This document shows, one piece after another, positions 4,223-7,564 of a DNA stretch of 64,000 bases. Below the pieces are notes generated by a model. That model was given only the letters and a program-made list of their open reading frames with translations, was not told the origin of the DNA and searched no databases. This DNA comes from an uncultured Verrucomicrobiae bacterium. GTDB lineage: Bacteria > Chlamydiota > Chlamydiia > Chlamydiales > Rhabdochlamydiaceae. The stretch spans positions 1,888,001 to 1,952,000 of the forward strand of contig OY970364.1 in NCBI GenBank assembly GCA_963718565.1, in the 5' to 3' direction. A program made the position numbers and the translations under genes. How positions within the stretch are numbered: the first letter of the stretch is position 1; each line of letters starts with the position of its first letter.

Positions 4223-4801
4223 TTAAAGACTCTTTGGCTTCTGCGAACCATTTTTTGCCGCGTTGGCCTGCACAATTGCTCTGGCCTCCTCGTAAGGCTC
4301 ATTTTTAATGTCTTTACCTACGTATGGATGATCCGGGTCATGCGCCAGATAGTAGAGTTTATTCTTGGCGTGGCACACGAACTCTACATCATTATCCGTG
4401 GGATGCTTCCCTCTCTTTTCGAAGGAAATAGTAACACGTGCCCGACTAGGAGGAAATGGGTATTCCCGTAAAAATGGTCTAATCTTTTCATGTGCATTGA
4501 TGATTTGTGCAAACCTCTCGGTAGCCTTCACCTCCAATTCTCTGGCTTGTTCTATCGTTGCGCTTCGATAGGCATCCAGCTGCACCAATATCTCTTCCAC
4601 ATCGTAAGGCATCGCTCCGCCACTCGCACCACATTCGAGTCCATATTCCTTGTACATTTCCTTAATAAACGCAGAGGTCACTTCAGCGACATATTGAGTG
4701 TAAATAGGAGAATCATCATCATCTTCTTCTTTGGCACTCACTTTCAGCTCGATAAATAATGTTAAAACAATTATGACAAAAAAACTAACGCGTGCTACCA
4801 C
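4223..4801 (-). CDS. Putative Rhs immunity protein, copy 5 (signal peptide)
   Basis: 192 aa, GTG start, hydrophobic N-terminus ending VSA; near-identical to the gene overlapping the rhs stop. Confidence 0.8.
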   Translation of the reverse strand: MVARVSFFVIIVLTLFIELKVSAKEEDDDDSPIYTQYVAEVTSAFIKEMYKEYGLECGASGGAMPYDVEEILVQLDAYRSATIEQARELEVKATERFAQIINAHEKIRPFLREYPFPPSRARVTISFEKRGKHPTDNDVEFVCHAKNKLYYLAHDPDHPYVGKDIKNEPYEEARAIVQANAAKNGSQKPKSL

Positions 4802-4905
4802 TATAAAAACCCTCGTTTTTTCTCAAATTCTTAATGAACTTTGATTGCGCTTCTTGATATGTTCCACCCAAAAAAGCATGATCAGCGAAGTAAACTGTTC
4901 GTTTC

Positions 4906-5487
4906 TTAAAGACTCTTTGGCTTCTGCGAACCATTTTTTGCTGCGTTTGCCTGCACAATTGCTCTGGCCTCCTCGTAAGGCTCATTTTTAATGTCTTTAC
5001 CTACGTATGGATGATCCGGGTCATGCGCCAGATAGTAGAGTTTATTCTTGGCGTGGCAGATAAACTCCACTTCACTGTAAGCAGAGAATCGCTTCCCTTT
5101 CTCTCTAAAGGAAATAGTAACACATGCTCGACTCGCAGGAAATGGGTATTCCCGTAAAAATGGTCTGAGCTTTTCGTGTGCATTGATGATTTGCGCAAAT
5201 CTTTCCGTAGCATTTACCTCCAATTCTCTGGCTTGGTCTATCGTTGCGCTTCGATAGGCCACAAGCTGCACCAATATCTTTTCCACATCGTAAGGCATTG
5301 CTCCGCCACTCGCACCACATTCGAATCCATATTCCTTGTACATTTCCTTGACAAACGCAGAGGTCACTTCAGCGACATATTGAGTGTAAATAGGAGAATC
5401 ATCATCATCTTCTTCTTTGGCACTCACTTTCAGCTCGATAAATAATGTTAAAACAATTATGACAAAAAAACTAACGCGTGCTACCAC
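4906..5487 (-). CDS. Putative Rhs immunity protein, copy 4
   Basis: 193-aa paralog in the array. Confidence 0.8.
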   Translation of the reverse strand: MVARVSFFVIIVLTLFIELKVSAKEEDDDDSPIYTQYVAEVTSAFVKEMYKEYGFECGASGGAMPYDVEKILVQLVAYRSATIDQARELEVNATERFAQIINAHEKLRPFLREYPFPASRACVTISFREKGKRFSAYSEVEFICHAKNKLYYLAHDPDHPYVGKDIKNEPYEEARAIVQANAAKNGSQKPKSL

Positions 5488-5592
5488 TATAAAAACCCTC
5501 GTTTTTTCTCAAATTCTTAATGAACTTTGATTGCGCTCCTTAGATATGTTCCACCCAAAAAAGCATGATCAGCGAAGTAAACTGTTCGTTTC

Positions 5593-6171
5593 TTAAAGAC
5601 TCTTTGGCTTCTGCGAACCATTTTTTGCTGCGTTTGCCTGCACAATTGCTCTGGCCTCTTCGTAAGGTTCGTCTTTAATGTGCTTGCCTACATAAGGACG
5701 GTCAGGGTCATGTGCCAGATAATGGAGTTTATTCTTGGCGTGGCACACGAACTCTACATCATTATCCGTGGGATGCTTCCCTCTCTTTTCGAAGGAAATA
5801 GTAACACATGCTCGACTCGCAGGAAATGGGTATTCCCGTAAAAATGGTCTAATCTTTTCATGTGCATTGATGATTTGTGCAAACCTCTCGGTAGCCTTCA
5901 CCTCCAATTCTCTGGCTTGTTCTATCGTTGCGCTTCGATAGGCATCCAGCTGCACCAATATCTCTTCCACATCGTAAGGCATCGCTCCGCCACTCGCACC
6001 ACATTCGAGTCCATATTCCTTGTACATTTCCTTAATAAACGCAGAGGTCACTTCAGCGACATATTGAGTGTAAATAGGAGAATCATCATCATCTTCTTCT
6101 TTGGCACTCACTTTCAGCTCGATAAATAATGTTAAAACAATTATGACAAAAAAACTAACGCGTGCTACCAC
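5593..6171 (-). CDS. Putative Rhs immunity protein, copy 3
   Basis: 192-aa paralog in the array. Confidence 0.8.
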   Translation of the reverse strand: MVARVSFFVIIVLTLFIELKVSAKEEDDDDSPIYTQYVAEVTSAFIKEMYKEYGLECGASGGAMPYDVEEILVQLDAYRSATIEQARELEVKATERFAQIINAHEKIRPFLREYPFPASRACVTISFEKRGKHPTDNDVEFVCHAKNKLHYLAHDPDRPYVGKHIKDEPYEEARAIVQANAAKNGSQKPKSL

Positions 6172-6275
6172 TATAAAAACCCTCGTTTTTTCTCAAATTC
6201 TTAATGAACTTTGATTGCGCTTCTTGATATGTTCCACCCAAAAAAGCATGATCAGCGAAGTAAACTGTTCGTTTC

Positions 6276-6866
6276 TTAAAGACTCTTTGGCTTCTGCGAA
6301 CCATTTTTTGCTGCGTTTGCCTGCACAATTGCTCTGGCCTCCTCGTAAGGCTCATTTTTAATGTCTTTACCTACGTATGGATGATCCGGGTCATGCGCCA
6401 GATAGTAGAGTTTATTCTTGGCGTGGCAGATAAACTCCACTTCACTGTAAGCAGAGAATCGCTTCCCTTTCTCTCTAAAGGAAATAGTAACACATGCTCG
6501 ACTCGCAGGAAATGGGTATTCCCGTAAAAATGGTCTGAGCTTTTCGTGTGCATTGATGATTTGCGCAAATCTTTCCGTAGCATTTACCTCCAATTCTCTG
6601 GCTTGGTCTATCGTTGCGCTTCGATAGGCCACAAGCTGCACCAATATCTCTTCCACATCGTAAGGCATTGCTCCGCCACTCGCACCGCATTCGAATCCAT
6701 ATTCCTTGTACATTTCCTTAATAAACGCAGAGGTCACTTCAGCGACATATTGAGTATAAATAGGTGAATCATCATCTTCGTCGACACTCATTTTTTTGGC
6801 GCTCACTTTCACCCCGATAAATAATGTTAAAACAACTATGACAAAAAAACTAACGCGCGCTACCAT
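6276..6866 (-). CDS. Putative Rhs immunity protein, copy 2
   Basis: 196-aa paralog in the array. Confidence 0.8.
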   Translation of the reverse strand: MVARVSFFVIVVLTLFIGVKVSAKKMSVDEDDDSPIYTQYVAEVTSAFIKEMYKEYGFECGASGGAMPYDVEEILVQLVAYRSATIDQARELEVNATERFAQIINAHEKLRPFLREYPFPASRACVTISFREKGKRFSAYSEVEFICHAKNKLYYLAHDPDHPYVGKDIKNEPYEEARAIVQANAAKNGSQKPKSL

Positions 6867-6970
6867 TATAAAAACCCTTGTTTTTTCTCAAATTCTTAAT
6901 GAACTTTGATTGCGCTTCTTGATATGTTCCACCCAAAAAAGCATGATCAGCGAAGTAAACTGTTCGTTTC

Positions 6971-7564
6971 TTAAAGACTCTTTGGCTTCTGCGAACCATT
7001 TTTTGCTGCGTTTGCCTGCACAATTGCTCTGGCCTCTTCGTAAGGTTCGTCTTTAATGTGCTTGCCTACATAAGGACGGTCAGGGTCATGTGCCAGATAA
7101 TGGAGTTTATTCTTGGCGTGGCAGATAAACTCCACTTCACTGTAAGCAGAGAATCGCTTCCCTTTCTCTCTAAAGGAAATAGTAACACATGCTCGACTCG
7201 CAGGAAATGGGTATTCCCGTAAAAATGGTCTGAGCTTTTCGTGTGCATTGATGATTTGCGCAAATCTTTCCGTAGCATTTACCTCCAATTCTCTGGCTTG
7301 GTCTATCGTTGCGCTTCGATAGGCCACAAGCTGCACCAATATCTCTTCCACATCGTAAGGCATTGCTCCGCCACTCGCACCGCATTCGAATCCATATTCC
7401 TTGTACATTTCCTTAATAAACGCAGAGGTCACTTCAGCGACATATTGAGTATAAATAGGTGAATCATCATCTTCGTCGACACTCATTTTTTTGGCGCTCA
7501 CTTTCACCCCGATAAATAATGTTAAAACAACTATGACAAAAAAACTAACGCGCGCTACCATCAT
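6971..7564 (-). CDS. Putative cognate Rhs immunity protein, copy 1 (signal peptide)
   Basis: Overlaps the rhs stop by 20 bp, which is the classic toxin-immunity position; predicted exported. Confidence 0.82.
   Translation of the reverse strand: MMVARVSFFVIVVLTLFIGVKVSAKKMSVDEDDDSPIYTQYVAEVTSAFIKEMYKEYGFECGASGGAMPYDVEEILVQLVAYRSATIDQARELEVNATERFAQIINAHEKLRPFLREYPFPASRACVTISFREKGKRFSAYSEVEFICHAKNKLHYLAHDPDRPYVGKHIKDEPYEEARAIVQANAAKNGSQKPKSL

Follow-up and report, generated by a model that had tools for sequence, protein, structure and literature searches.

Tandem paralogs behind an Rhs toxin gene form a block mosaic made by homologous recombination between copies of a predicted immunity gene

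How does one Rhs toxin gene come to be followed by five neighbouring paralogs, each a different combination of the same few sequence blocks, and are these combinations selected or incidental? The question is raised by a 64,000-nucleotide stretch of DNA (referred to as the window) from an uncultured Verrucomicrobiae bacterium that GTDB places in the Rhabdochlamydiaceae of the Chlamydiota (GenBank assembly GCA_963718565.1, contig OY970364.1, positions 1,888,001 to 1,952,000). The listing of open reading frames (ORFs) showed five intact minus-strand ORFs of 192–197 aa directly downstream of a 1801-aa ORF encoding an Rhs protein; they are designated u1 to u5 from rhs outward. Their block mosaic was made by homologous recombination between the tandem copies. 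We put at roughly 0.8 the probability that it arose mainly as a by-product when a repeat-rich locus recombined a few times, the locus being a tandem immunity array behind an Rhs toxin whose copies are kept intact by purifying selection. The genes concerned are as follows.

7545..12950, minus strand: Rhs/YD-repeat polymorphic toxin gene (1801 aa), identified by its ORF and by matches to RHS_repeat and the Rhs-associated core
6971..7564, minus strand: u1, type A-X-R; its start overlaps the rhs stop by 20 nt
6276..6866, minus strand: u2, type A-X-H; recombinant, with 459 nt identical to u1 followed by the same H block as in u4
5593..6171, minus strand: u3, type B-Y-R; recombinant, with a 5' part equal to u5, a 3' part equal to u1 and the breakpoint within 5725–5745
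4906..5487, minus strand: u4, type B-X-H; recombinant; substitutions private to it lie at 5352, 5350 and 5280
4223..4801, minus strand: u5, type B-Y-H; with a private cluster of four substitutions at 4438–4450

Counted from one gene's stop to the next, each unit is 683–698 nt long. The paralogs are 85–98% identical, with 86–98% in comparisons with u1, stand in tandem on the same strand and are separated by spacers of approximately 105–110 nt, which is the arrangement of a homogeneous polyimmunity locus. Private amino acid changes are I>V and E>K in u4, and A>P and C>R in u5. The latter two are caused by the cluster at 4438–4450, where four private substitutions lie within 13 nt; either a micro-conversion patch whose donor is not among the sequences seen or a multi-base mutation could explain it.

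The initial annotation had divided the paralogs into three dimorphic blocks, an N-terminal one (A or B), a middle one (X or Y) and a C-terminal one (R or H), in the order A-X-R, A-X-H, B-Y-R, B-X-H and B-Y-H outward from rhs, and the protein alignment reproduced this order exactly. The five units were also aligned as DNA; each indel was scored once, and only parsimony-informative events were used. Among the 64 informative events, 13 support the split {u1,u2 / u3,u4,u5} (alignment columns 109–288), 35 support {u1,u2,u4 / u3,u5} (columns 280–546) and 15 support {u1,u3 / u2,u4,u5} (columns 568–633), while one further site lies in the intergenic tail (column 58). The pattern switches 5 times along these events; the minimum in 200,000 permutations of the site order was 22, so that none of them had 5 switches or fewer. 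A neighbour-incompatibility statistic (similar to the pairwise homoplasy index) was equalled by none of 20,000 permutations. By the four-gamete test, the third split is incompatible with each of the other two. The first two are tree-compatible with each other and yet wholly separated in space, and since mutation on a tree would not separate them in this way, recombination is the explanation. One interleaved pair of sites was observed in u4, which is X-type at column 280 and B-type at column 288. The breakpoints fall in stretches that are identical between units. Block structure, exact repeats and permutation tests thus all agree with the original proposal that unequal crossover and/or gene conversion between tandem copies gave rise to the chimeras. 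That all five copies differ is also true, but weak by itself, because five random draws from 8 combinations all differ with a probability of 0.205. Few steps lie behind the "combinatorial" appearance: about four distinct breakpoints suffice, and one crossover in the register of two units explains much of the pattern.

The history of the array can be read from its exact repeats, the longest of which occupies the following positions.

5821..6649, minus strand: 829-nt exact repeat; its second copy is at 4451–5279, an offset of 1370 nt or two units

A 459-nt repeat (7103–7561 = 6408–6866) makes u1 identical to u2 through blocks A and X, and a 203-nt repeat (6921–7123 = 5543–5745) makes u1 identical to u3 through block R into the next tail. 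A single crossover in two-unit register, taking three units to five, predicts the junctions seen in all three repeats. The array has thus probably grown recently from three to five units by unequal crossover, with the 829-nt repeat as the footprint. The breakpoints, of which approximately four are distinct, are T2|A in u2 (about 6867–6878, where T2 is a variant toxin-gene tail described below), B|X in u4 (about 5300–5385), X|H in u2 and u4 (6408–6428 and 5038–5058, shared by descent) and Y|R in u3 (5725–5745).

According to the scenario that we propose, two old immunity lineages would once have stood side by side, A-X-R at the live toxin with its tail T1, and B-Y-H behind the vestige of another toxin allele with tail T2. 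Homologous recombination in short identical stretches would have mixed both lineages and led to a starting array of three units, [a, b, c] = [A-X-R, ?-X-H, B-Y-H]. An unequal crossover with its breakpoint in a 21-nt stretch identical in all units (columns 547–567; 5725–5745 in u3) would then have yielded [a, b, c5'+a3', b, c], which reads A-X-R, ?-X-H, B-Y-R, ?-X-H, B-Y-H and in which B-Y-R is newly created. In a later gene conversion, u1 would have been copied over the 5' two-thirds of u2, giving A in u2 versus B in u4. Such a later conversion of u2 by u1 fits both the 459 nt that these units share and the three sites private to u4 in that span.

A fourth two-state block accompanies the coding blocks, as the 105 nt upstream of each gene repeat the 3' end of rhs. 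In front of u1 stands the true tail (T1), and in front of u2–u5 the variant tail (T2). T2 and T1 are identical at 87 of the 105 nt, with exact shared runs of up to 31–35 nt, and the T2 tails are nearly identical to one another. Searches by tblastn and across the whole genome found four extra matches to the toxin domain (residues 253/254–294), one before each of u2–u5, at 71–76% identity.

7548..8429, minus strand: C-terminal toxin domain of the Rhs protein (294 aa), beginning after the LDLFGL motif that ends the core
6853..6975, minus strand: vestigial toxin 3' end of T2 type before u2 (41 codons; tblastn match to toxin residues 254–294, 75.6% identity)
6158..6280, minus strand: vestigial toxin 3' end (T2) before u3 (tblastn, search of the own genome, alignment)
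5474..5600, minus strand: vestigial toxin 3' end before u4, in two shifted tblastn pieces; a 1-nt insertion (column 54) produces a TAA stop inside the match
4788..4910, minus strand: vestigial toxin 3' end (T2) before u5 (tblastn, search of the own genome, alignment)

Each fragment keeps 41 of the 294 codons of the toxin domain, and the one before u4 is frameshifted. The T2 peptide ends like the family consensus of relatives, which indicates a real alternative toxin end, not just a decayed T1. Each vestige holds the region of the conserved Asp-His (catalytic-His) motif and a Shine-Dalgarno-like GAGGG/AAGGG stretch 8–13 nt before the start of the next gene, which it overlaps. Vestiges between immunity genes recur in two loci of relatives (L022 and L039). 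In a further relative (L029, a 1092-nt metagenome contig, 75% identical), a 109-codon toxin fragment, longer than those of the present array, stands between the end of one immunity gene and the next.

The block versions are not of one age. The proportion of synonymous differences (pS) between u1 and u5 varies strongly along the gene.

codons 1–37: pS 0.18
codons 38–57: pS 0.00
codons 58–129: pS 0.25
codons 130–146 (loop): pS 0.76
codons 147–153: pS 0.00
codons 154–175 (R/H): pS 0.85
codons 176–196: pS 0.14 (two sites private to u5)

Old islands therefore lie within sequence that has been made identical. The spread from 0.00 to 0.85 between segments rules out a simple model of two alleles that diverged over the whole gene, and the description of the paralogs as mosaics of "two alleles" proved too simple for this reason and because X/Y and R/H are old lineages that are also present in foreign homologs. 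The X loop is 79% identical to that of P0017 and 74% to those of P0008 and P0013, and the Y loop is 89% identical to that of P0007 and 78% to that of P0012, while X and Y share 8 of 19 positions. The H block is identical at 27 of 27 positions to P0004 and P0012, and the R block is 89% identical to P0008 and P0003. Among the foreign homologs, X-like loops occur with R-like blocks (P0008, P0017) and Y-like loops with H-like blocks (P0004, P0007, P0012). From this linkage, u1 (A-X-R) and u5 (B-Y-H) look like the parental lineages, and u2, u3 and u4 look recombinant. P0003, with a Y-like loop and an R-like C block, suggests that mixing may have occurred elsewhere too. No genome of the same species was found; the closest homologs are 75–80% identical, and the nearest match in a metagenome scan was 75% identical.

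The overall ratio of nonsynonymous to synonymous substitution rates (dN/dS) between u1 and u5 is 0.18 by the Nei-Gojobori method. This value and the integrity of all five ORFs, while one tail is frameshifted, argue for purifying selection on the copies. The proportion of nonsynonymous differences (pN) is 0.29 versus a pS of 0.76 in the loop, and 0.08 versus 0.85 in the R/H block. Crude Nei-Gojobori counts gave no support for positive selection in the loop, although synonymous sites are near saturation and the test is weak. The initial annotation had pointed to the indel-bearing loop as a candidate binding surface, and among 111 homologs of 170–230 aa it is indeed the most variable stretch of the mature protein (positions 135–143, 2.2–3.3 bits, with indels at 137–138). 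The A/B block spans the last part of a signal-peptide-like segment and the first, acidic residues of the mature protein; being situated in an export signal and linker, it is unlikely to be a recognition surface.

The strongest alternative is that recombination has been selected because each chimera neutralises another toxin variant; recognition would then fall to the X/Y loop and perhaps also to the R/H sites. In its favour, no copy is broken and no two are the same, the loop is hypervariable and also varies in length, each loop type and each C-block type is retained in different organisms, variant toxin tails exist of which T2 ends like the family consensus, and arrays of diverged paralogs are common in relatives; the same idea was proposed for esaG and tipC in the excerpts of Garrett et al. 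(2022; PMC9484751). On the other side, the pN and pS values of the loop and the R/H block carry no sign of positive selection, five distinct combinations of 8 have a probability of 20% under random draws, a single duplication is enough to account for two of the units, the A/B block belongs to the export signal and linker, and the locus has a single full toxin of this subtype. We regard a repertoire of specificities as a reasonable hypothesis that is compatible with the by-product explanation, and as possible though rather unlikely to be what drove the shuffling.

The Rhs protein matched RHS_repeat (PF05593, E=3e-58, in 7 stretches), TIGR01643 (E=2e-39) and the Rhs-associated core (TIGR03696, E=9.2e-16, residues 1435–1507), and the 294-aa variable C-terminal domain follows the LDLFGL motif. 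The AlphaFold2 model of this domain has a mean predicted local distance difference test (pLDDT) score of 95.2. Its Foldseek matches in the PDB are all alpha/beta hydrolases (esterases, dienelactone hydrolases and lipases), the best with E=1.4e-6 and probability 1.00, at template modeling (TM) scores of 0.45–0.51. Across 51 relatives, S175 (in the nucleophile elbow HSEGG) and D227 do not vary, and conservation reaches at least 90% at H174, E176, D263 and H264. The toxin domain thus has, by its model, the fold of a serine alpha/beta hydrolase and is probably an esterase or a lipase. Either D227 or D263 may be the triad acid. Among cluster representatives, 358 relatives of the domain were found at E<=0.001, many of them at the C-terminus of proteins of approximately 1650–1840 aa. 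The domain had no Pfam match even at E<=10 and no NCBIfam family; a Pfam scan of the 51 relatives returned only single stray matches, and DUF687 (PF05095) was matched neither by the array's toxin domain nor by any of the 51. A sequence-profile search of the PDB gave nothing meaningful for the toxin or the immunity family.

The Rhs N-terminus (12860–12950), as read from the sequence, has a signal-peptide-like hydrophobic segment, and export of the protein is therefore probably Sec-dependent, a mode that the consulted parts of a survey of polymorphic toxins list among their trafficking routes (PMC3482391). TssC/VipB (PF05943) was not found in the single-contig genome, which is 95% complete. Two other loci of the same genome carry related proteins. 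At one (L006, G000:C1:868564-871995), a second Rhs protein whose C-terminal domain matches DUF687 (39.6 bits, E=3.2e-10) is followed by a 292-aa lipoprotein-like homolog of the paralogs, and at the other (L007, G000:C1:291488-294853), a 419-aa stand-alone toxin-domain protein is followed by a 177-aa lipoprotein-like homolog.

Of 41 genomes searched, 31 have the paralog family (the source genome and 30 of its 40 relatives), often in tandem, and in 20 of 30 foreign loci a member abuts or overlaps the end of the toxin domain. Neighbours in the ESM Atlas belong to unnamed clusters that are commonest in Chlamydiota. The AlphaFold2 model of a paralog (mean pLDDT 84.6) consists of a low-confidence N-terminal helix (residues 5–23) and an alpha+beta domain, in which the X/Y loop (132–145) connects two strands and the hairpin after it carries the R/H sites. 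Read by eye, the N-terminus is hydrophobic and followed by V-S-A, and the partners at L006 and L007 have a Cys lipobox-like motif. Neither Pfam nor NCBIfam returned anything for the paralogs, and a Pfam scan of 76 immunity relatives gave only single stray matches. Foldseek found nothing in the PDB at E<=0.001 for the immunity model, and the wide VIA-align search gave a best Z of 7.5, to unrelated small alpha+beta domains, with none at Z>=8. A complex prediction for the toxin domain and mature u1, both supplied as alignments, scored 0.00 in two runs made without controls (mark, 0.32).

By their position, the paralogs appear to be exported alpha+beta immunity proteins of about 170 aa that act against the toxin, and u1 would be the cognate immunity protein of the resident toxin. 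Two relatives in the same genome resemble remnants or fusions of such genes. A 125-aa, N-terminally short homolog (L008, G000:C1:1332168-1335470, ORF 1438-1815) has no toxin gene beside it and is an orphan or a remnant. A 468-aa protein (L009, G000:C1:183477-186875, ORF 754-2160) has, by eye, two apparent immunity-like domains, of which one only was matched in the genome search, and a hydrophobic segment at the C-terminus, and is possibly a fused "polyimmunity protein". Tandem copies, interspersed toxin vestiges, the orphan and the fused protein are hallmarks of immunity genes and point to an immunity role.

It is conceivable that the paralogs are not immunity proteins but lipase helpers (anchored in the membrane on its periplasmic side and similar to foldases or chaperones), or partners that are secreted and act with the toxin on a host cell. 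In Pseudomonas and Burkholderia, a lipase helper gene stands just downstream of the lipase gene, and the paralogs likewise lie downstream of, and overlap, a lipase-like gene and begin with a hydrophobic segment. In addition, the genome lacks a detectable TssC (PF05943) and the Rhs protein has its own signal-like N-terminus, so that delivery into rival bacteria is not obvious. However, lipase foldases form a helical scaffold, unlike the small alpha+beta domain predicted here, and the hypervariable loop suits a role in recognition. The tandem multiplicity, the interspersed vestiges, the orphan L008 and the fused L009 also speak against a helper (compare the excerpts of Zhang et al., 2012; PMC3482391), and we consider this explanation quite unlikely.

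The initial annotation had named short-read mis-assembly of two alleles as what would overturn its claim. The block variants were compared with independent samples. The genome is a single contig of 2,284,058 bases and approximately 95% complete. Sampled sequence words were sought in sequencing runs. None contained all of them; the highest fractions came from four soil-metagenome runs of a single study (0.40–0.51) and from a freshwater run of another (0.29), and no RNA run was among those listed. Logan contigs of the runs X1 and X2 (one soil study), X5 (a freshwater study) and X6 were aligned to one unit (6975–7800). These are short de Bruijn contigs at depths of 2–8, and those that bridge units are 442–529 nt long. 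The alternative letters in them coincide with the R/H sites (at least 14 of 15 among the rows listed) and with the X/Y and A/B sites. Both R and H were found in X1, X2 and X5, both X and Y middle blocks in X1 and X2, and both A and B across the runs. Nine loose letters beyond 7123 correspond to the Y version and connect it in X1 and X5 with H and, in the same two runs, with R; one X1 contig joins X to the first two R sites. The contigs of X1, X2, X5 and X6 gave no coverage of the rhs body beyond approximately 7670.

Three kinds of unit junction were recovered. In X1, R is followed by a tail and A; this tail is T2-like for the first 23 nt and then T1-like, with a 1-nt insertion, and its breakpoint differs from those of the array. 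In X2, R is followed by T2 and B, with a B-type letter at column 288 and an X-type letter at column 306, the same as in u4. In X5, H is followed by T2 and B. Contigs of two other studies thus carry both versions of all three blocks as well as the Y-R and B-X links. In particular, the freshwater contigs independently contain the recombinant Y-R link, which argues against mis-assembly. An assembly or polishing artefact, in which two or fewer real versions would have been turned into chimeras by mixed reads of near-identical repeats, would suit block sizes (about 65–270 nt) close to short-read length and exact repeats (459 and 829 nt) beyond short-read span, but it is very improbable, given that the single 2.28-Mb contig resolves approximately 19 copies of a 172-bp repeat, that contigs of other samples hold Y-R (X1, X5), B|X (X2) and the three junction kinds, and that the exact repeats fit one crossover with coinciding breakpoints, unlike random read mixing.

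The chimeric tail in X1 means that recombination between the tail types has occurred. The vestiges could be more than debris, since recombination of the live T1 end with T2 tails would, in a single step, swap the last 41 residues of the toxin, among them the conserved Asp-His motif, change the immunity chimera next to it and add or remove units. The locus would then be a system of co-varying toxin–immunity cassettes, in which the shuffled loop and C block would set who is protected from whom among co-infecting strains of an intracellular symbiont in whose genome a search for a type VI sheath gene (TssC) found none. This extension is speculative, and we give it little credence.

Several points weigh against a by-product of a few events as the full account. 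The order of events is one consistent scenario with no claim to be the unique solution, and an extra conversion is needed for A in u2 versus B in u4. The scenario leaves over the interleaving of columns 280 and 288, the tail differences between u2 and u4 at columns 54 and 58, and the four-substitution cluster of u5. The closest homologs, at 75–80% identity, are too distant for a comparison of copy number between strains. Among the contig pieces listed, the X-H link was not seen, and X1 and X2, which hold about half of the sampled words, are perhaps related to the source sample, so that only X5 and X6 clearly come from other studies. The tie between paralogs and toxin rests on gene position and conserved adjacency, and the putative signal peptide of the paralogs was read by eye. 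Finally, by-product and selected diversification can both hold.

The array ends distally in a remnant of a further unit.

4003..4222, minus strand: incomplete sixth tail at the distal end of the array, interrupted at 4038–4209 by a 172-bp MITE-like (miniature inverted-repeat transposable element) insertion

The 172-bp element has terminal inverted repeats of approximately 35 nt, which end in an 11-nt perfect inverted pair, and TA on both flanks. About 19 near-full copies at 91–98% identity and many partial ones are present in the genome; the 81 matches for the element also count hits of its terminal repeats on the opposite strand and three stretches of 25 nt in the unit ends of the array. The distal flank of the array has, on the minus strand, a 705-aa UvrD/PcrA-like helicase ORF at 1811–3928, labelled from sequence motifs by eye, and at 3–1583 a 527-aa ORF with a lysine-rich tail that runs off the end of the window.

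The comparison with known systems draws on excerpts of the cited papers. Those of Garrett et al. (2022; PMC9484751) describe tandem esaG and tipC immunity genes that share conserved nucleotide blocks, with strong evidence that the paralogues recombine and thereby change in copy number and sequence, and they speculate that the variable regions set toxin binding. Like those arrays, which belong to toxins of the type VII secretion system, the locus is a string of non-identical immunity genes behind a polymorphic toxin with crossover at conserved blocks, and the statistical signal of recombination at conserved blocks between variable ones is present here too (0 of 200,000 permutations). It differs in phylum, toxin, immunity fold and secretion route. 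Furthermore, the copies here resemble one another much more closely (85–98%), with two versions per block, each unit carries a piece of the toxin gene, and one crossover is readable from exact repeats.

Orphan modules downstream of rhs and of cdiA, the latter from contact-dependent inhibition (CDI) systems, recombine with the main gene according to the excerpts of Poole et al. (2011; PMC3150448) and Koskiniemi et al. (2014; PMC3967940). As in these toxin-CT/immunity modules (CT, C-terminal), a toxin-gene fragment homologous to the live toxin stands before each extra immunity gene. In contrast to them, there is no complete alternative toxin domain; with 41 of 294 codons kept, the fragments cannot supply a new one. 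In the excerpts of Zhang et al. (2012; PMC3482391), homogeneous polyimmunity loci are tandem, same-strand, closely spaced paralogs of one family that are interpreted as a backup against varied toxins, are described as never interrupted by toxin cassettes, and, where they have at least 4 genes, were then limited to proteobacteria, bacteroidetes, firmicutes and actinobacteria. The present array shares with them several tandem same-strand paralogs of one family with short spacers. It differs in the toxin vestige that stands before each of u2–u5, and in a family whose relatives are mainly in Chlamydiota.

The immunity arrays of the Vibrio cholerae type VI secretion system (T6SS) were attributed, in the excerpts of Kirchberger et al. 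(2017; PMC5361080), to sequential effector displacement plus homologous recombination; in both cases old immunity genes are kept downstream and homologous recombination produces mosaic clusters. As described there, those arrays grow by horizontal acquisition of effector–immunity pairs, whereas the latest growth here was an internal duplication by unequal crossover. The Tle/Tli pairs of the T6SS are lipase-type antibacterial effectors with periplasmic immunity proteins, and their immunity genes are often multiplied. Tox-ABhydrolase toxin domains have also been described (excerpts of PMC3482391). The putative serine alpha/beta-hydrolase toxin, its predicted exported immunity partner and the multiplied genes resemble both. 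Here, unlike Tle/Tli, neither partner is in Pfam or NCBIfam, no TssC was found in the genome, and the toxin is an Rhs protein with a signal-like N-terminus. A narrow literature search found no paper about this family, which makes this a weak statement.

The recombination mechanism itself is ordinary and has been described in other systems. The value of the locus lies in a clean natural record of array growth and reshuffling, in which crossover points, a two-unit duplication and the apparent parental lineages are readable from exact repeats. It pairs two families outside Pfam and NCBIfam, an Rhs-borne predicted alpha/beta-hydrolase toxin domain and an alpha+beta partner of about 170 aa that is predicted to be exported, and it adds a lineage with relatives chiefly in the Chlamydiota to those in which multi-gene immunity arrays are known. 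Should the five natural chimeras differ in specificity, they would be a ready swap series for mapping toxin recognition. Taken with the systems above, the locus joins known features, namely polyimmunity, orphan modules and recombining immunity genes, in new protein families and a new lineage.

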